Shown: piece by piece, positions 16,397 to 58,017 of the stretch
Layout: each line of letters opens with the position of its first letter
How positions within the stretch are numbered: the first letter of the stretch is position 1
From: an uncultured delta proteobacterium
GTDB taxonomy: Bacteria > Myxococcota_A > Polyangia > Polyangiales > B10-G4
Assembly: GCA_963727445.1 (NCBI GenBank)
Contig: CAVSGI010000006.1
Coordinates: 384,001 to 448,000 of the forward strand
Length of the DNA stretch: 64,000 bases
Direction of reading: 5' to 3'
Translations under genes and position numbers: made by a program
Notes under the pieces: model-generated
Told to the model about the DNA's origin: nothing
Seen by the model: only the letters and a program-made list of their open reading frames with translations
Database searches by the model: none

Positions 16397-17181
16397 ATGC
16401 TATCGGACCACTCGGAGCGGGACAAGATCACCCGGGTCGCCTTCACCCTCGCGGCGGCCCTGATCCTGAGCGCGCTCTGTCCAATCGGCGCCGAGGCGCT
16501 CGGGGAAACCACCCTCTTCGACGTGCGGCAGGTCGTCTACGGCCCCGCGTCCCGGCCGCGCGAGACGGCGGCGCGTCGCCTCTCCTGGGAGGTGCGCAAG
16601 CGCACCAGCATCGAGACGCGCCTCAGGCCCACCGAGGCGCGCCTCGACGATCCTTCGATCTTCGAGACGCCCTTTCTCTACTGGGCGGGGGACGCGGAGT
16701 TCGAGCCGCTGTCGCGTCGCGGAGATCACGGGCCTGCGGCGTTTCGTCGAGTTCGGCGGCTTCGTCCTCATCGACGACGCCTCCCCCGAGGGCAGCGGCT
16801 TCGACAGCTCCGTGCGCCGCGCGCTCTCCCGCGCGTTCCCGGATTCGCCGCCGACGCCCCTGTCCAGCAGCCACACCATCTACCGTTCTTTCTACCTGCT
16901 CGATCGTCCCGTGGGCCGGGTGCGGGGACCGGCGGCCAGCTCGCGCCATCGAGCACGGCGGCCGGGAGGCGGTGGTCTACAGCCGCCACGATCTCGGCGG
17001 CGCGTGGGCGCGCGACAACCTCGGCACCTGGGAGCACGCGGTGACGCCCGGCGGCGAGCAGCAGCGCGAGAGCGCCATCCGGCTCGGCGTGAACATCGTG
17101 ATGTACGCGCTCTGCCTCGACTACAAGGACGATCAGGTCCACGCGCCGTTCATCATGCGGCGTCGCGGCCCGGTGCCCTGA
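16397..17181 (+). CDS. DUF4159 domain protein, two apparent frameshifts (~16715, ~16945)
   Basis: Joined frames give PFLYWAGD...FVEFGGFVLIDD...HTIYRSFYLL...VVYSRHDLGGAW...AIRLGVNIVMYAL. Confidence 0.75.
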
Positions 17182-17203
17182 GCGCTGTCGGTCACGCATT
17201 CTG

Positions 17204-19460: not shown

Positions 19461-20204
19461 ATGTCCTCGCTTCGTTTCTCCTTCGCCCTCGCGGTCGTCG
19501 TCCTGATCGCCACCGGCTGCGAGGAGAAGATGCACGCCCCCCCGGTGCCCCCGAGCGACGGGTCGACGCGGGACGTGTCGATCTCGCCGCCCCCGCCGAC
19601 GCGGAGGGACAGCGGGATGGACGGGGCGGCGATGGACGGCTCGGCGGATGCGTCGTTGGACGCGGACCTGGATGCCGACTTGGATGCCGACGCGGCGCTG
19701 CCGCTCGGCTGCTTCGCGGCGGGCGCGGCGACCGGCACCGACGCGACGATCATGAGCGGGGGCACGGACTTCCCCTTCGCGGTGACGCGCAGCTTCGCGA
19801 CCTGGGACCCGCTGTTCTGCGACACCACACCGCACAAGATCGTCGTCGGTCTGACCGAGGGCTCGTGCACCCCCGTCTCCGGTGACCAGCAGCTCGTGTT
19901 CTCGCTCGAGGAAGATGCCATCGGGACGACGCTCAACCTCGGCCCCAACTCGCTCCAGGAAGAGCCCACCTCGCTCGGGCTCACCGTTCGCTTCCGCGCG
20001 AGCGGAGAGGTGTGGGGCACGTGCCCCGGCTCGTCGGGGACCGTCACCTTCGACGCGATCACTGCCCTCGTAGGCGAGCGGCTCACGGCCCGCTACGACA
20101 TGATCCTGACCGATTGCACCTCGCCCACCGATTCACCCTCTCTGATGGTGACCGGCACCTTCGACGTTCCCCTCGACATCTCCTTCGAAACCGCGTGTCT
20201 CTGA
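19461..20204 (+). CDS. Hypothetical lipoprotein
   Basis: Lipobox IATGC followed by a DA/DG-rich linker. Confidence 0.7.
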   Translation: MSSLRFSFALAVVVLIATGCEEKMHAPPVPPSDGSTRDVSISPPPPTRRDSGMDGAAMDGSADASLDADLDADLDADAALPLGCFAAGAATGTDATIMSGGTDFPFAVTRSFATWDPLFCDTTPHKIVVGLTEGSCTPVSGDQQLVFSLEEDAIGTTLNLGPNSLQEEPTSLGLTVRFRASGEVWGTCPGSSGTVTFDAITALVGERLTARYDMILTDCTSPTDSPSLMVTGTFDVPLDISFETACL

Positions 20205-20205
20205 C

Positions 20206-20787
20206 ATGTTCCGACCGATCGCTCTCGCTGCCGCGCTCGCACTGATGGCTCTCGCCTGCGGCCGCACCCGCACGCCCCCACCGCACCCGCCCGCGGACGC
20301 TTCGTCCGATGCGGCGGACGGCGGCGGTGACGCCGACGCGGCGACCGAGTGCGCACCCCTCGGTCCGGCCGCCTGCCTCGCCGCGGGCTGCATCCCCACC
20401 TACGACGACACTTGCTGTCCGGCCTGTACGCCGATCGGCGCGTGTGCGGATTGCACCAACCCGGACTTCTTCATCTGCCGCACGATGGAGGACGCGTGCA
20501 CCGGGAGCTTCTGCAGCGTCCCCGCGGCCGGCACGTGTGACGCGCCCTCCGTGGATTGCACGAGCACCATGCCCTTCGACGAGGACTCGTGCTCGCTCCC
20601 CGGCTGCGTGCCCGTGGTCGCGGCGGTGGGAGACCCGGAGCTCCCGCCGACTTGCGTGGCCATCAGCGCCGAAAGCTGCACGGTCTCGTGTCGCAGCCTG
20701 CCGCCGGAGTGCCCGGACGGAACCACCGCCGAGGGCGACGGCAGCTGCTGGACCGGCCAGTGCATTCCGGCGTCTGTTTGTAGCTGA
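20206..20787 (+). CDS. Cys-rich hypothetical lipoprotein
   Basis: Lipobox ALAC and many regularly spaced Cys residues. Confidence 0.7.
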   Translation: MFRPIALAAALALMALACGRTRTPPPHPPADASSDAADGGGDADAATECAPLGPAACLAAGCIPTYDDTCCPACTPIGACADCTNPDFFICRTMEDACTGSFCSVPAAGTCDAPSVDCTSTMPFDEDSCSLPGCVPVVAAVGDPELPPTCVAISAESCTVSCRSLPPECPDGTTAEGDGSCWTGQCIPASVCS

Positions 20788-20816
20788 CGCGCCCCGGGGG
20801 GTGAACGGGGGAGGAG

Positions 20817-20958
20817 GCATCGGGCGGCGCCCGATGCTGGGGAACGGGAGCGGGAACGGGAACGGGCACGTGGCTGTAGCCGTGCATGGCGGAGCGGACG
20901 GCAGTCCGCGGAGCTGCACGGGTACAGGCTCGTCGACGCATCGGGCGCAGCCCGATGC
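20817..20958. repeat. Two copies of a 21-nt REP-like palindrome GCATCGGGC-N3-GCCCGATGC (20817-20837, 20938-20958)
   Basis: Perfect 9-bp stems with 3-nt loops, each followed by a hexamer tract. Confidence 0.85.
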
Positions 20959-20964
20959 TAGTCA

Positions 20965-21187
20965 ACGGGAGCGTGAACGGGAGCGGGAGGGGGAACGGGA
21001 ACGGGAGCGTGAACGTGAACGGGAACGTGAACGTGAACGGGAGCGGGAACGGGAACGGGAGCGGGAACGGGAGCGTGAGCGTGAACGGGAGCGTGAACGT
21101 GAATGGGAACGTGAACGTGAACGTGAACGGGAGGGGGAACGGGAACGGGAGCGGGAACGGGAACGTGAACGGGAGCGGGGATGGGAG
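20965..21187 (+). repeat. Hexamer tandem array CG(G/T)GA(A/G), ~37 units
   Basis: Runs of CGGGAA/CGGGAG/CGTGAA/CGTGAG are directly visible. Confidence 0.95.
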
Positions 21188-21213
21188 TGCGCGGCTCGGT
21201 GGGTCGTCTGATC

Positions 21214-21282
21214 GTGTTTCTTGGTCATCGCTGAGACCCCTTCTGGGTTGGGAAAGGGGTCTCAGCGATGACCAAGAAACAC
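21214..21282 (+). promoter_or_regulatory. Perfect 29-bp inverted repeat covering the RBS and ATG of the four-helix-bundle gene
   Basis: GTGTTTCTTGGTCATCGCTGAGACCCCTT (21214-21242) pairs with AAGGGGTCTCAGCGATGACCAAGAAACAC (21254-21282), 11-nt loop; regulatory role is inferred. Confidence 0.8.
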
Positions 21283-21609
21283 TCTGATTCGATGATTCAT
21301 CACGACTTGCGTGTCTGGCAGCGGGCGCGAGCCCTCGTGCAGCTCGTGTATGCGAACCTGCCGGCCGATGCGGAGCTTCGGTCGCAGGTGAAGCGGGCTT
21401 CGACTTCGGTCGGGGCGAACATCGCCGAGGGTTGCACGCAGAGCTCGCGGGCGATGCGGCGCAAGCACTACGAGATTGCCCGCGGTTCGGCCGTGGAGAC
21501 CGTGGCGTGCTTCGAGTTGGCGGAGGCGACGGGGGATCGGCTACCGGTCGAGGAAGTCCGCAGCCACGGGGCGGCGATCGCCGCGATGCTCACCAGGATG
21601 CTGCGGTGA
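21268..21609 (+). CDS. Four helix bundle protein (23S rRNA-IVS / Avd-like family)
   Basis: Family motifs LRVWQRA...QVKRASTSVGANIAEG...IARGSAVE. Confidence 0.9.
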   Translation: MTKKHSDSMIHHDLRVWQRARALVQLVYANLPADAELRSQVKRASTSVGANIAEGCTQSSRAMRRKHYEIARGSAVETVACFELAEATGDRLPVEEVRSHGAAIAAMLTRMLR

Positions 21610-21617
21610 AGCACTCT

Positions 21618-21645
21618 GAGCCCGGAGGGGTTTCCCTCCGGGCTC
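21618..21645. terminator. GC-rich hairpin between the convergent four-helix-bundle genes
   Basis: GAGCCCGGAGGG-gttt-CCCTCCGGGCTC, 12-bp stem; no clear U-tract. Confidence 0.6.
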
Positions 21646-21652
21646 GGGTGGC

Positions 21653-21979
21653 TCAGCGATGGATCATGCGAAAGAGGGTGGCGGCGGCATGATCGAAATG
21701 GTCCTCGGCGGCGTTGCACTCCGCCGCGCTCAGATAGCCCCAGGCCACGGCGATGCGCAGCGCCTGTCTGGCTTCTCTCGCTGAGTTCATCGCGACCGAG
21801 AGCCGCTCGGGCCGATGCCCTTTTCGCCCCCACTCGCCCTCGGCCGCGTTGAGCGCCGCCGAGCTGGCGGCGCGCCGCAGCTGCGACGCGAGGTCGCGGT
21901 CTTCGTGTTGGATCCTTTCGGCCAGTGGCCGGGTGGCCTCGATGGCTTCGAGGAGGATGTCGTGTACCAGCTTGCTCAT
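21653..21979 (-). CDS. Four helix bundle protein (second, divergent copy)
   Basis: DLASQLRRAASSAALNAAEG...AMNSAREARQALRIAVAWGYL; AAGGAG RBS upstream. Confidence 0.88.
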   Translation of the reverse strand: MSKLVHDILLEAIEATRPLAERIQHEDRDLASQLRRAASSAALNAAEGEWGRKGHRPERLSVAMNSAREARQALRIAVAWGYLSAAECNAAEDHFDHAAATLFRMIHR

Positions 21980-21984
21980 GAGGG

Positions 21985-22055
21985 GTTGCTCCTTCCGCCC
22001 ACGTCAGGGGCTTCGCCCCGCCCGAAGGGCCCCTGACGTGGGCGGAAGGAGCAAC
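21985..22055 (-). promoter_or_regulatory. Perfect 26-bp inverted repeat covering the RBS of the second four-helix-bundle gene
   Basis: GTTGCTCCTTCCGCCCACGTCAGGGG (21985-22010) pairs with CCCCTGACGTGGGCGGAAGGAGCAAC (22030-22055); the minus-strand AAGGAG lies in the stem. Confidence 0.8.
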
Positions 22056-22057
22056 GC

Positions 22058-22408
22058 CGGGCGTTGGCCGCAACCTCGCGACTTGCGACCGCCTGGCGGT
22101 CACGACTGCGGGCGTTGGCCGCAACGTCGGGACTTGCGACCGCCTGGCGGTCACGACGGCGGGCGTTGGCCGCAACGTCGGGACTTGCGACCGCCTGGCG
22201 GTCACAACGGCGGGCGTTGAGCGCAACGTCGGGACTTGCGACCGCCTGGCGGTCACAACGGCGGGCGTTGGCCGCAACGTCGGGACTTGCGACCGCCTGG
22301 CGGTCACAACGGCGGGCGTTGAGCGCAACGTAGGGACTTGCGACCGCATGGCGGTCACAACGGCGCGCGTTGACCGCAACGTAGGGACTTGCGACCGCAT
22401 GGCGGTCA
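22058..22408. repeat. 51-bp tandem array, ~7 copies, two palindromes per unit
   Basis: Units start at 22058, 22109, 22160, 22211, 22262, 22313 and 22364; each contains CGTTG-N4-CAACG and GACCGCC-T-GGCGGTC. Confidence 0.95.
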
Positions 22409-22504
22409 ACTAACTCCGATGGGAATGATCCCGCTCCCGTTCTCTGTCCCCACTCACCCACCCATTCCCAGTCCCAGACCCAAGCGCAGCATGGGGTCGA
22501 GACG

Positions 22505-22734
22505 ACGGGAACGGGAATGGGAGCCGGAGCGCGAACGGGAACGGGAACGGGAGCGGGAACGTGAGCGTGAGCGTGAAGGGAACGGGAACGGGAACGGGAA
22601 CGTGAGCGTGAGCGTGAGACGGGAACGTGAACGCGAACGGGAATGGGAACGGGAACGGGAACGGGAACGGGAGCTGAGCGGGAACGTGAACGGGAGCGGG
22701 AGCGGGAGCGGGAATGGGAGCGGGAACGGGAGCG
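22505..22734 (+). repeat. Second CG(G/T)GA(A/G) hexamer array, ~38 units, abutting the cheA stop codon
   Basis: Same unit and orientation as 20965-21187. Confidence 0.95.
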
Positions 22735-25384
22735 TCAGCTGTCGGTTTCGCCTCGTCTGGCTAGCTCGCGGCTGATGGCTTTGAGCACTTCCGTGGCGTC
22801 GGCGGGCTTGGTGAGGTAGGCGTCGACGCCTGCGTCGAAGCCGCGGATGCGGTCGATGCGGTCCTCCTTCGAGGTGACCATCACGATGGGGACGTCGCGG
22901 TAGGCCGGCATCGCGCGAAGGCGGCGGGTCAGCTCGTAGCCGTCCATGGTGGGCATCACCACATCGGTGGACACCAGGTCGAATCGCTCGTGGGCGGCGG
23001 CGGCGAGGCCTTCGGCGCCGTTGTGGGCGACCACCACGCGGTAGCCGGCCTCGGTGAGGATCCGGCGCAGCGCTTCGCGCACCGTGTCCGAGTCCTCCAC
23101 CACCAGGATCGCGGGCGCACCCTCTCGTTCGGTGACGGCCGCCTGGGCACCGCGCGAGGGGCCGACCCCGCGGATCGCCATCGCGACCAGGGTGGGAACG
23201 TCGAGGATCAGCACGCAGCGCTCGCCCACCAGCGTCGCCCCCGCCGCCCCCGGCACGCGGGTGAGCAGCGAGCCGAGGGATTTGATCACGATCTCCTGGC
23301 GCCCGATGAAGCCGTCGCAGGCGAGGCCGTAGCGGTGGCCGGCGATGTCCACCAGCACCACCGGCAGCTCTTCGGTCATGCGCCCGCTCGCGCCGCCGGC
23401 GCCGATCACCTCCGCGAGGCGGATCAGCGGGATCTCTTCGCCGCCGTCGTGAAGGAGCTCGCGATCCGTCGTCATGCGAACCCGCGATGGCGGCGCGGCG
23501 ACGGTGCGCTCCACCAGGTCGAGGGGCACGGCGTAGACCTGACCCGAGACGCGGAGGAGCAGGACCTGGACGATGGCCAGAGTGAGGGGGAGGCGGATCT
23601 CGAAGCTGCTCCCGGCGCCGAGCTCCGACTCCACCGCGACCGTACCCTTGAGCCGCCCGATGGTGTCGCGCACCACGTCCATGCCGACGCCGCGACCCGA
23701 GAGATCGCTGACCCGCCCGGCGGTGCTGAAGCCCGGCCGGAAGATCAGGTCGAAGACCTCGTCGTCGGCGAGGCCCTCGGCCTCTGCGCGTGCGAGGAGC
23801 CCGTTCTCGATCGCCTTGGCGCGCACCTTCGCCACGTCGATGCCGCCGCCGTCATCGGCGATGCGGATCACGATCTGGTTGCCGCGATGGGAGGCCGAGA
23901 GCGTCATCGAGCCCTCCGCGCTCTTGCCGCGCGCTTCGCGCACGTCGGGGAGCTCGATCCCGTGGTCGATGGCGTTTCGCACGAGGTGCAGGAGCGGATC
24001 GTCGAGCTGCTCGACGAGCACCTTGTCGAGCTCGGTCTCGCCACCTTCGAGGTCGAGGCGCACCTGCTTGCCGAGCTTGAGCGCGATCTCCCGCACCGTG
24101 CGGTGGTACTTGGACCAGCTGCGACCGATGGGCACCATCCGCAGCTTCATCACCTGATCGCGGAGCTCGCCGGCCACGAAGTCAATCTGCTGGCTCGCCG
24201 CGTCGAGGTCGCCGCTCAGCTGCTCGAAGGCGCGGTGGATCCGGCCGAGCTCGGTGGAGATCCCTTGAGAGCGCACCGCGCTGGTGCGCACCCGCGCGCC
24301 GTTCGGCGGCGCCGCGCCTCCGCGCTTGCGCTCGGTCCGCGCGCTGCGCCTCTGATCGTCGAGCTCGCGCGCCACCGAGCCGAGCCCACCGAGCCCCACC
24401 GTCAGCCGGCCTTTGGCAATCACCAGCTCGCCCACCAGGTTCATCAGGAGGTCGAGCTTCTCGAAGTCGATGCGGAGCGTCTGATGGCGAACGTTGGTCT
24501 TGCGCTCCGCCCCGGCGGTGGGCTTGGGGGCGGGCGCCGCACCCCGCGCCGCGATCGCACCCGCAGACTCGGGCACGCCCGTGAGCTTGGCGAGGGCGGG
24601 GCCGATGTCCACGTCGATGTCGCCCCGCGCTGCCGCCGCGTGCACGATGGCGGTGAGGGCGTCGAGGGAGCCGAGGAGCGCGTCGATCACCGCCTGATCC
24701 GCGCGCCGGCGTCCCTCGCGGACGTGGCCGACCAGAATCCTCGGCCGCGTGGGCGAGGCGGGTCATCCGTTTGAGGCCCACGAAGGCGCTCGACCCTTTG
24801 AGGGTGTGCAGGTCGCGGAAGATCGCGGCGACGAGCTCGCTGTCGTCGGGCGCGCGCTCCAGCTCCACCAGGCGCTCGCTCAGCCCTTCGAGGCGCTCCT
24901 GACACTCCTCGAGGAAGGGGTCGATCATGTCGGCGTCGACGGTGGGCTGCCAGGTGCCGTCGTCCTCGTCGTGCGCGGCGTGGGCGGCGCCGCCGCTCGG
25001 ACCGTGCACTGCCTCGGGCGGCGGGAGCCCGGCGCGAAGCGCCTCGGCTGCCTCGGCAATCCTCTCGGCGTCGAGGCGGGCGCCGCTCTCGTCGGGCCGC
25101 GCGAGGTCGGCGAAGGCGTCGACCAACGCGTCGGCGGCGCTCTCGAGATGCTCGCGGAGCTCGTCGCTGGGCGGCCGTGGGCCGAGCTGCTCGACGCGCG
25201 CTCGGATCGCCCCGGCGAGCGCCGCGACCTCCGGCACCCCCACCACGTGGGCGTCGAGCTCCACCGCGGTGAGCGCTTCGAGGAGCGCGTCGACGTTGCC
25301 ACCCTCGCCGCCGAGGATCTCCCGGATGCGGTTCGCGAGGTCCGTGCCTTCGGCGACGAAGGCGGTGAAGGCATCGCTGTTCAC
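22735..25384 (-). CDS. cheA: Hybrid chemotaxis histidine kinase CheA with C-terminal receiver; +1 frameshift near 24737
   Basis: Hpt IFRDLHTLKGSS, dimer domain KLDLLMNLVGELVI, HLVRNAIDHGIE, DDGGG, GFST, SGRGVGMDVV, CheW domain, receiver ILVVEDS...TDVVMP...YLTKP. Removing one T in GAGGATTCTG joins the two ORFs. Confidence 0.92.
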
Positions 25385-37917: not shown

Positions 37918-39214
37918 TGGCGACGATAAAGCTCCACGTTCAGCACCGTCACCCCCCCTTCGTCCACACGGATCCGCCGGGTCTGGGAGCGATGGCCTCG
38001 CGCCTCGATGGTGACCTCGTAGCTCCCCGCGGGAACCTCGAGCTCGAACTCCCCCTCCTCGTCGGTCGCGATGGTCTCGCCGCCCGGCTCGATGGTGATG
38101 GTGGCGGCGAGAGGCTGTCCGTCGAAGCCGCGGATCAGTCCCCGAAGCTGCGTGAGCGGAACCTCAGGCTCGGTCTCGGTGACCGTCTCGGTTTCGGTGA
38201 CCGTCTCCGTCTCCGTCTGGGTCTCCGTCTCCGTCTGGGTCTCCGTCTCCGTCTGGGTCTCCGTCTCCGTCTGGGTCTCCGTCTCCGTTCCGTCTCCGTC
38301 TCGGTCTCCATCTCGGTCTCTGCCGCCGGCTCCAACGCCAGCGTCGCCCCCAGCAGAATCGACAGCCTCGGCGGCGTGGGCGTGAACGCTCCCATGTCCC
38401 GGATGTCGTACGAGCTCAGGTTCACGTCGACGGTGCCGAAGAGCCACATCGGCAGGGTCTCGGAGGGGCGGACGCGGATCCCCGGGGCGAGATGTAGCGG
38501 CGACGCGCCCGCATTGGGAGCGCCGCTGCCCACGAGCACGTTCCACCGCGCCTCGGCGTAGACCTCGACGGCGTCGGAGGGTGCCCAGGATGCGGCGAGG
38601 CCGAGGACGACGGCGCTGAAGTCGCTCACGTCGAGGCTCACGCGCTCGAGGGTGCTCGCGGCCTGGGGCGCCGACTGCCCCGTCTGGTCGAATCGATAGC
38701 CGGCGTTCAGCGCGATGGCGAAGCGCCCGTCGCGCGGCGCCCACGCGGCGAGCGCTTCGGCTTGGAAGGACGTCCCCGAGAAGTCCAAGCCGAGCCCTTG
38801 CTCGCCCGGCGGAACGAAGAGCTCGAGCTCCGTCCCGAGACGAAAGTCGCCGAAGGTGGAGCCCAGGCGCATCCGAAGGTGGGGATCGAGGACGAAGGTG
38901 TCGATGTTCCCGGCGCTGGCGCTGCTGCTGTGGTTGTAGCGGCCGTCGAGCGAGAGCCCGATCGCCAGTGGACCGATCGGCCGGGCGGCGACCGCCAGCC
39001 CGATCGGCATTCGGTAGTGCGAGTCGGAGTCGTTCAACACCGACTCCGTCACGGCGAAGCCCGTGGTGAGGGCGCCCGTCACCCGCGGCGCCTGGTCGTC
39101 GATGATGCCTACACGGTTGAAACCCGGCAGCCCCGTGCGGCTCGGCGCGCGGGATTGCGCGCTGGCGCTGCCGCTCATCATGAAGAGCGCTCCGATGACC
39201 AGGGCCCACCGCAT
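37914..39214 (-). CDS. Outer-membrane protein with ET-rich linker and carboxypeptidase-regulatory-like C-terminal domain; frameshift ~38290
   Basis: ORF 38135..39214 (signal peptide, beta strands) joins the tail of ORF 37914..39209 (LRGLIRGFDGQPL...TDEEGEF...GSYEVTIEARG). Confidence 0.7.
38165..38320. repeat. Intragenic 18-bp/6-bp repeat encoding (ETETQT)n
   Basis: Tandem GTCTCCGTCTCCGTCTGG units. Confidence 0.85.
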
Positions 39215-57442: not shown

Positions 57443-58017
57443 CAGGACTCCTGGGGGCCGGGAGCACACTCCCGGCTTCGGGCCGCTGCGCTCCCGGTCC
57501 CGCGCCGCACCGCTGCGCGGTGCTCTGCGGGCCCGTCCGCTCCGCGTCCCGAAGCCTTCTGCGCACGGCCGGGAGCGCACTCCCGGCTTCGGGCCGCTGC
57601 GCTCCCGGTCCCGCGCCGCACCGCTGCGCGGTGCTCTGCGGGCCCGTCCGCTCCGCGTCCCGAAGCCTTCTGCGCACGGCCAGGAGCGCACTCCCGGCTT
57701 CGGGCCGCTGCGCTCCCGGTCCCGCGCCGCACCGCTGCGCGGTGCTCTGCGGGCCCGTCCGCTCCGCGTCCCGAAGCCTTCTGCGCACGGCCGAAGGGCA
57801 CCTTGGGACGCAGATAGATTCGGCCGTGGCCGAAGCGGTCGATCACGTAGTGGTCGAACGCGCCCTCGTGGAGGTTCGCGATGTGGAGGCCCGGCAGGCC
57901 CCCCGAGCGGACGAGCTCCACCGCGATGCGGCGGATCTCGCGATCGCCCATGTGTGGCTCGATCGCGCGCGGGTAATCCACGCTCATGCCGTTGTAGGTG
58001 ATGTTGAGGATGGCCAT
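57442..58017 (-). CDS. Putative ubiquitin-like modifier: 76-aa core ending PKVPFG, plus a repeat-derived tail
   Basis: GAAGGAGG RBS; TGATG coupling to both JAB and ThiF; codons 1-76 (58017-57790) show a strand-strand-helix-strand pattern. The Ubl fold is inferred from context. Confidence 0.65.
   Translation of the reverse strand: MAILNITYNGMSVDYPRAIEPHMGDREIRRIAVELVRSGGLPGLHIANLHEGAFDHYVIDRFGHGRIYLRPKVPFGRAQKASGRGADGPAEHRAAVRRGTGSAAARSRECAPGRAQKASGRGADGPAEHRAAVRRGTGSAAARSRECAPGRAQKASGRGADGPAEHRAAVRRGTGSAAARSRECAPGPQES
57456..57788. repeat. 3 tandem copies of a 111-bp palindromic REP/MITE-like element
   Basis: Units start at 57456, 57567 and 57678; internal hairpins GCCGGGAG-N4-CTCCCGGC, GCACCGC-N3-GCGGTGC and GGCTTCGGG...CCCGAAGCC; GGCCG recurs at 57789. 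Confidence 0.92.

Follow-up and report, generated by a model that had tools for sequence, protein, structure and literature searches.

We have analyzed a 64,000-nucleotide stretch of genomic DNA from an uncultured delta proteobacterium (contig CAVSGI010000006.1, positions 384,001 to 448,000; the window), in which two convergent open reading frames (ORFs) encoding four-helix-bundle proteins occupy a slot beside cheA. We define a module as a hexamer array, a hairpin leader and a four-helix-bundle gene, and a cassette as two such modules arranged tail to tail. The module is very probably mobile, and a single-stranded DNA (ssDNA) stage probably matters in its life. The whole account, that of an enzyme-less cassette of two tail-to-tail modules spreading by way of an ssDNA form, is in our judgment evenly balanced. 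The evidence comprises copies, empty sites, direct arrays and selection on the proteins, together with template-strand loops of the DNA type and, in relatives, promoter boxes formed by fold-back. The genome of the window is G000 (9.47 Mb, 86% complete), in which the contig of the window is C6, and G001 is a genome of the same genus.

G000 contains 16 matches to the gene family, made up of five pairs of a type A and a type B gene, plus six single genes, three each of types C and D. The five pairs, with their hairpins and same-strand hexamer arrays, lie at five unrelated sites, and each of the single genes has an upstream array. The pair on contig C27 is 99% identical to that of the window and its flanks differ; despite the identity of the genes, the order and number of the hexamer units are not the same in the two copies. 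At all three informative orthologous sites in G001 both the cassette and the arrays are missing. The first is a clean 57-bp gap ahead of a miaB-like gene. The second is the end of cheA, where the interval is occupied by a different gene, and the third is the end of an outer-membrane gene, where the contig continues only 126 nt past the stop codon. For a fourth site, next to purM, the orthologue was not found in G001. The names of the neighboring genes other than cheA (lipoprotein-like, miaB-like and outer-membrane) are our assumption. A previous sequence-only reading of the window had proposed a small mobile or selfish module, and had suggested a search for empty sites in relatives, including the cheA slot. 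The five copies, the empty sites, the tandem copies in relatives described below and the purifying selection on the proteins support that proposal. Only short, unlike pieces were found in two DNA sequencing runs.

Among 251 genomes of the order, 131 have the gene family. Tandem forms occur, with an array-pair-array-pair-array in G023 (L014) and five head-to-tail array-leader-ORF units in G137 (L081). The two outer arrays of the window are direct repeats of one type (comparison values 0.94 direct and 0.01 inverted). Of 48 rows of gene pairs, with one locus counted twice, arrays were called on both sides in 28, and 23 of these are direct. An arrangement of inverted arms around an ORF was rejected here, as the arrays are direct. 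In a tree of 51 chosen proteins the two partners of a pair group as sisters in G097, G204 (both starred) and G023 (86/60), and are distant from one another in G000, G022 and G053. Moreover, protein A is paired with B in G000 and with C in G001. These patterns point to the single module as the basic unit, with tail-to-tail pairs having probably formed more than once. Two type D modules of G000 (C9:915981-925615 and C12:55372-57438) lie behind duplicated 3' ends of a presumably ABC-F-like gene, 7.6 kb apart. The C12 copy includes the final 14 bases of the ABC-F-like gene end, and one of the two modules adjoins an ORF that we take to be transposase-like.

The features of the insert are listed in Table 1.

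Table 1. Features of the cassette and its surroundings, in window coordinates
Feature	Position	Strand	Description
Host slot	between lipoprotein-like ORF (stop 20787) and cheA (stop 22735)		two convergent ORFs inside
Left edge of insert	20817..20869	+	partial copy of the 94-bp unit (terminal palindrome) and short GGGAAC-type run; 30 nt past the stop of the lipoprotein-like ORF
94-bp gene-less hairpin unit	20870..20963	+	GC-GCA-GC and GC-GGA-GC motifs; independent passenger sitting in hexamer arrays
Left hexamer array	20964..21187	+	GGGAAC/GTGAAC/GGGAGC variants, ~36 units
Gene 1 leader hairpin	21214..21282		perfect 29-bp stem 21214-21242/21254-21282, 11-nt loop
Gene 1 (type A)	21268..21609	+	four-helix-bundle protein, 113 aa, TIGR02436/PF05635
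Palindromic hairpin at both gene ends	21616..21650		also found 3' of single modules in G001
Gene 2 (type B)	21653..21979	-	four-helix-bundle protein, 108 aa
Gene 2 leader hairpin	21982..22058	+	27-bp perfect stem over the Shine-Dalgarno sequence
Seven 51-bp units	22052..22408	+	passenger; its repeat family is a separate one, spread over the genome
Short reverse-oriented hexamer run and small GC-GCA-GC stem	22429..22498	+	likely remnant of an outer leader known from type C modules
Right hexamer array	22505..22734	+	same strand as the left array; abuts the cheA stop codon

Much of the layout had been recognized before. Gene 1 does lie behind a hexamer array and a perfect 29-bp stem, the genes converge on a shared hairpin, and hexamer arrays bracket the whole insert. 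The insert is free of rRNA, reverse transcriptase (RT) and transposase, as had been stated; its only two ORFs both belong to TIGR02436, and a scan of the region against Rfam gave no family at gathering score, with hairpin matches only below threshold. The 94-bp hairpin unit had been missed in that description. The 51-bp array had been assigned to gene 2, and this does not hold. It belongs to a separate family with at least 19 loci in G000, most of which stand free and several of which adjoin tRNA-like genes, and among the five cassette copies it is present in those of C6 and C27 and absent from the other three. Because the 51-mer and the 94-bp unit are passengers, and hexamers of one family border both genes, we abandon the ideas that one layout had been built twice from unrelated DNA and that module 2 is nested within module 1.

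The 51-mer contains a GACCGC-n-GCGGTC palindrome, and some of its loci (which include C6:73846-74841, C6:535220-536127, C12:178290-179002 and C17:220855-221781) end in terminal inverted repeats of their own. The 94-bp unit has four near-full and two partial copies in G000 and 13 copies in G001, usually within GGGAAC arrays, with matches, many of them short, in 12 of 41 genomes. It folds well as DNA (z = -6.3). Its copies, which include those at C11:34848-34918 and at loci L022, L023, L025, L028 and L030, insert at AAC, within hexamer arrays, in coding sequence and in a remnant that we take to be IS110-like; the copy interrupting this remnant is diverged and has AAC on either side. Elsewhere in the window, positions 57456-57793 hold three 111-bp tandem copies that are 98% alike, GC-rich and palindromic. 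Reading-frame breaks occur at 16397-17200 in a DUF-like gene and at 24182-25384 in the 5' part of cheA. These breaks, and single-base indels in several cassette copies, suggest homopolymer assembly errors.

Hexamer arrays accompany the genes well beyond the window. Of 60 single-gene rows, a few of which repeat a locus, 51 have a period-6 array no more than 450 nt upstream, compared with 24 of 2000 random windows. The comparison of upstream repeats with controls that had been proposed for the window thus shows enrichment of arrays. The arrays occur in either polarity relative to the gene. There are 98 period-6 arrays in G000, of which 17 are at four-helix-bundle genes, 58 within long ORFs of high GC content at third codon positions (as called in this analysis) and 23 elsewhere. 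We viewed 20 examples, and most read as linkers of (GT)n, (GN)n or (ET)n kept in frame. In-ORF arrays are found at 1014-1120 and 38169-38320 of the window and at C9:828538, C14:387475 and C21:713955, and often have the GGGAAC unit of the cassette. Array-free G001 orthologues of in-frame arrays were sought at eight loci, giving no usable orthologue pairs. G-quadruplex formation as a general principle was rejected on inspection, because the CGGACT and CAGTGC arrays have no G3 tracts. Changes of A to N, as made by diversity-generating retroelements (DGRs), were weighed by eye as a source of the array variation, without a count, and dropped.

Both genes encode members of the four-helix-bundle family that includes the proteins of rRNA intervening sequences (IVS), as had been read from the translations. 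Genes 1 and 2 score 70 and 47 bits respectively against TIGR02436 (cut-off 24), and 74.7 and 42.9 against PF05635 (Pfam cut-off 33.8). The two proteins are 27% identical. The evidence for the fold comes from a model of gene 1, which has a pLDDT of 93.9 and matches Xcc0516 (2GSC) with a template-modeling (TM) score of 0.78-0.84. It also weakly matches a 110-residue chain of a DGR complex (8ub7_E, TM 0.72, E 0.9), which we take to be Avd. There is a second conserved methionine at 21292, and counted from this the gene 1 protein has a pI of 9.7. Both proteins are under purifying selection, with dN/dS = 0.03-0.09 among copies of A and 0.08-0.15 between distant copies of B; family copies in G009 give 0.07-0.15. 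For these values the frameshifted C14b copy was excluded, and the near-identical C6 and C27 copies have too few changes to read. To our knowledge PF05635/TIGR02436, a large family with solved structures, has no known function outside DGRs. Orphan family copies in cas loci are noted, without explanation in the text available, in PMC3936711.

The leader hairpins go beyond chance in this genome. The 9.47 Mb of G000 contain 126 perfect inverted repeats of at least 20 bp, which were sorted by eye; 106 belong to one repetitive extragenic palindromic (REP) family, 11 cover starts of four-helix-bundle genes, of which there are 16, and nine are elsewhere. The 106 comprise two REP types beginning GGGGAC, each flanking its own gene resembling the REP-associated tyrosine transposase (RAYT; C9:567190 and C10:487668). 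The stem of gene 1 (z = -11) covers a Shine-Dalgarno-like AAGGGG, the ATG and four further codons. That of gene 2 had been given as 26 bp; the stem is real, and its perfect part is 27 bp within a 30-bp stem that is 97% paired (21982-22011/22029-22058). It covers the GGAG, leaving the ATG 3 nt outside. On mRNA the computed stabilities are -64 and -71 kcal/mol. The stem of gene 1 is perfect, and therefore the strand that folds cannot be told. In the leader of gene 2, it is the template (+) strand that shows a CC-GAA-GG mini-hairpin and a mismatch of the G.G type.

Comparison with relatives directs attention to the template strand. We counted triloop hairpins of the form C(GNA)G with at least 4 bp in 134 leaders; the template strand has 99 and the coding strand 12, where shuffled sequences give ~5 and ~3. 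All four nucleotides occur at N. According to the accessible portion of PMC13037366, such mini-hairpins (GCGNAGC) are extraordinarily stable as DNA, a related one is much less stable as RNA, and they are a hallmark of ssDNA origins and of the promoters of phage N4. CC-TTC-GG was removed from the count because it could be a UUCG loop of RNA, leaving 74 on the template strand and 10 on the coding strand. By genome (n = 36) the bias is to the template strand in 19 and to the coding strand in two (18 and one on removal of CC-TTC-GG), the others being tied. In 4404 leaders of control genes of G000 the corresponding numbers of C(GNA)G loops are 275 and 202. The isolated mismatches in 45 start-covering stems, read on the coding strand, include ten A.C and one G.T; the wobble pairs are therefore on the template strand. 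The proposal that the hairpins hide the ribosome-binding site (RBS) in RNA stands in that the Shine-Dalgarno sequence is covered. Yet a role at the RNA level is at most a side function, because in relatives the loops and most of the informative mismatches put the fold on template-strand DNA.

In a subset of relatives the leaders are longer and share a covarying stem built on an invariant core, GTGCTCG/CTGYGC, as seen at 29 distinct loci. In 37 of 39 of these a TTGAC-like box, 16 nt and then xAxxxT are found on the fold-back non-template arm, against a background of 2.1%. The coding arm, which would serve in double-stranded DNA, has the same -35 and -10 boxes in none of the 39. As judged from their sequences, the long leaders are predicted to rebuild -35 and -10 boxes within a template-strand fold-back, which is the design of the Frpo/ssi promoters. 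We compared these results with a held-out set of 74 loci, remaining from 79 after five duplicates were dropped, for which the named records are mostly Polyangiaceae, Sandaracinaceae and other myxobacteria, so that the host of the window is probably a myxobacterium too. There the fold-back promoter is present in 13 of 13 and on the coding arm in none, and C(GNA)G loops number 31 on the template strand versus one on the coding strand. An upstream array was present at 45 of 66 loci and a stem covering the start at 22 of 69, and 14 of 74 gave hits on both strands.

A number of observations weigh against an ssDNA-borne mobile cassette. The two short leaders of the window have no fold-back promoter, with no candidate upstream of either start; the leader of gene 2 has no usable -10 box, and a scan for conventional sigma-70 promoters found none. 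In double-stranded DNA the boxes of the long leaders would also constitute an outward antisense promoter facing the array. Taken by itself, G000 has a weak loop bias, at six template to three coding, or three to three without CC-TTC-GG. Purine-purine mismatches (A.G and G.G) outnumber C.T by ten to two, favoring the coding strand, and a single family supplies most of the A.C excess. Among the pairs with arrays called on both sides one has inverted arrays and three have unlike units (the remaining case being a run of N), 20 of the 48 pair rows have no called array on one side or lie at a contig edge, and a downstream array is present in just 20 of 60 single-module rows. The co-occurrence of arrays and family, which speaks for the account, is seen among kin and so is not an independent test: (GGGAAC)4 occurs in four of 41 genomes, all four having the gene family, and (CGGAHW)8 in nine, of which eight have at least five family genes and one has none. 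Finally, no copy was found in plasmids, searched with gene 2, or in viral contigs, and hence there is no known vehicle.

Of four alternatives, the one that survives best, although we consider it improbable, is a sensor serving the host. The protein would be made only upon the appearance of ssDNA, in transfer, damage or phage infection, and copies would spread passively by recombination between pre-existing arrays. The fold-back promoters and the purifying selection would suit such a role, and direct arrays permit RecA-type excision and tandem duplication. However, the empty sites have no array with which to recombine and the sites are not conserved within the genus. Moreover, PADLOC gave no match, and the family is missing from roughly half of the genomes of the order.

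Next, and likewise improbable, comes a REP/REPIN-like passenger, in which an HUH nuclease (RAYT, IS200 or IS91-type) cuts at the GNA-capped hairpins and the four-helix-bundle gene is selected cargo. Two RAYT-like genes of G000 adjoin hexamer-type repeats (C9:168544-169248, L143, and C10:985543-986226, L144), the former also lying between GNA-capped hairpins, and REPs and the GTAG-containing 94-bp unit are found within arrays. Their subfamily has 45 matches in G030 and 11 in G002. Against this, the subfamily was not found in G009, G010, G022, G031 or G035, nor PF01797 in G009 (100% complete, 16 genes), G010 or G017. A strong array is present at only one G000 locus among the 20 loci of that subfamily, and no conserved cut-site tetramer was seen by eye at the cassette edges. 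A RAYT is thus not supported as the universal mover, not having been found in several cassette-rich genomes.

We think it a little harder still to sustain a non-autonomous retroelement, in which an RT acting in trans would copy the module RNA with the help of the Avd-like protein as its cofactor, the hairpins being features of the cDNA and the arrays arising by slippage. The resemblance of the gene 1 fold to 8ub7_E is in keeping with this, the cDNA would correspond to the template strand, and DGR targets use DNA hairpins with GRNA loops, as given in the available part of PMC3240598. Yet the sole RT found in G000 is that of a type XIII retron on another contig (L244, C1:30500-34000, beside a 268-aa ORF), G010 (92% complete, nine genes) has no RT match, and RT occurs in ten of 19 genomes that lack the gene family. 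Among the genomes compared RT presence does not track the family, and neither an HUH transposase nor an RT tracks the element. No pair resembling the template and variable repeats of DGRs was found in 20000-23500 of the window. A truncated G001 copy (L025) keeps the array end and has no gene, the opposite of what a truncated cDNA would leave. GxxExxY genes were not found in G000 (86% complete).

Autoregulation at the RNA level is very unlikely. On this reading the array ahead of each gene would be bound by the protein of that gene, which would thereby open or close a hairpin over the RBS, and module 2 would lie inside module 1. The stems do cover the Shine-Dalgarno sequences on mRNA, and extra G.U pairs lengthen the gene 1 stem on the coding strand, but the 51-mer array is free-standing elsewhere, the arrays take either polarity to the gene and the loops are of DNA type on the opposite strand. 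The defining traits of an insertion sequence (IS) or miniature inverted-repeat transposable element (MITE) are absent: the only two ORFs are both TIGR02436, the ends are direct arrays and the clean empty site shows no fixed duplication.

Several known systems share parts of this design. The IVS of 23S rRNA (S23p; Coxiella, Leptospira), as far as described in the accessible text of PMC4990558, has a PF05635/TIGR02436 protein, a selfish and patchy insert and a poorly accessible translation start, like the cassette. The cassette differs in lying outside rRNA, with stems 5' of each ORF that do not enclose it and no ORF within a terminal stem removed by RNase III, and in having hexamer arrays, two convergent genes, purifying selection and a fold assigned to template-strand DNA. 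With Avd and the target hairpins of DGRs (PMC3240598 and PMC10053308, in the sections available) it shares the four-helix fold, GC-rich DNA hairpins and purine loops of the form G...A. Unlike a DGR it has no RT, template repeat or variable repeat; the loops are GNA of 3 nt, and the gene itself is mobile. Dispersed degenerate short tandem repeats near stop codons, sometimes intragenic, are shared by our arrays and the REP/RAYT and G-rich heptamer systems, the heptamers of Xanthomonas and Nostoc being generally unlinked to mobile elements in the available text of PMC4692102. The arrays differ in having six-base units tied to a four-helix-bundle gene and direct, not inverted, around the cassette, and many types (CGGACT, CAGTGC) are unable to form G-quadruplexes.

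The ssDNA systems are closer in design. The ssDNA promoters Frpo and ssi, to the extent covered by the accessible portions of PMC9849209 and bioRxiv 10.1101/2023.02.15.528439, have fold-back -35 and -10 boxes ahead of a small gene, as do the long leaders of relatives. The likeness is one of design; the cassette is chromosomal and multi-copy with no oriT or relaxase, and the feature is missing from the window leaders. By analogy, the long-leader form probably works like a Frpo-driven establishment gene. The cassette has the GCGNAGC loop motif (PMC13037366, as available) in all four variants and on the template strand, and differs from origins and promoters bearing it in encoding no primase, polymerase or Rep protein. 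No description of the element was found in the literature searched, most subscription papers and all supplements lying outside the search. The element lacks what defines rRNA intervening sequences, DGRs and IS/MITE elements, and an undescribed mobile module is the best reading.

The cassette that we favor, spreading without an enzyme of its own, could work as follows. In double-stranded DNA the gene would be silent, as read-through mRNA would pair the Shine-Dalgarno sequence with the upstream arm. When single-stranded, the template would fold, and long-leader modules would form a promoter giving an mRNA without the blocking arm. The short leaders of the window would have kept the silencing stem and lack the promoter. 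The Avd-like protein, presumed to be a pentamer like Xcc0516, would bind the folded strand or the array end and promote annealing, with the assistance of host repair enzymes, into sites that are close to stop codons or of low complexity. Insertion of this kind would leave direct arrays, tandem copies and gene-less arrays. Tail-to-tail pairs may arise repeatedly, since each strand then receives one module.

More speculatively, and to us an unlikely extension, the cassettes could represent a minimal class of selfish element, widespread in myxobacteria and without a gene for a nuclease, recombinase or RT. Its Avd-like protein, expressed from an ssDNA promoter, would catalyze or chaperone the insertion of its own strand and write six-base repeats into the host genome, among them the (GT)n, (GN)n and (ET)n linkers that lie in frame in dozens of proteins, and twin modules would work from either strand. 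If this is true, it would provide a transposase-free route for the spread of DNA and extend ssDNA promoters from the leading regions of plasmids to chromosomal repeats. It would also explain long simple repeats that are specific to lineages, including the repeat linkers of myxobacterial proteins. For the PF05635/TIGR02436 family, the element offers a testable job and, in the folded template strand together with the hexamer array, a substrate on which to do it.

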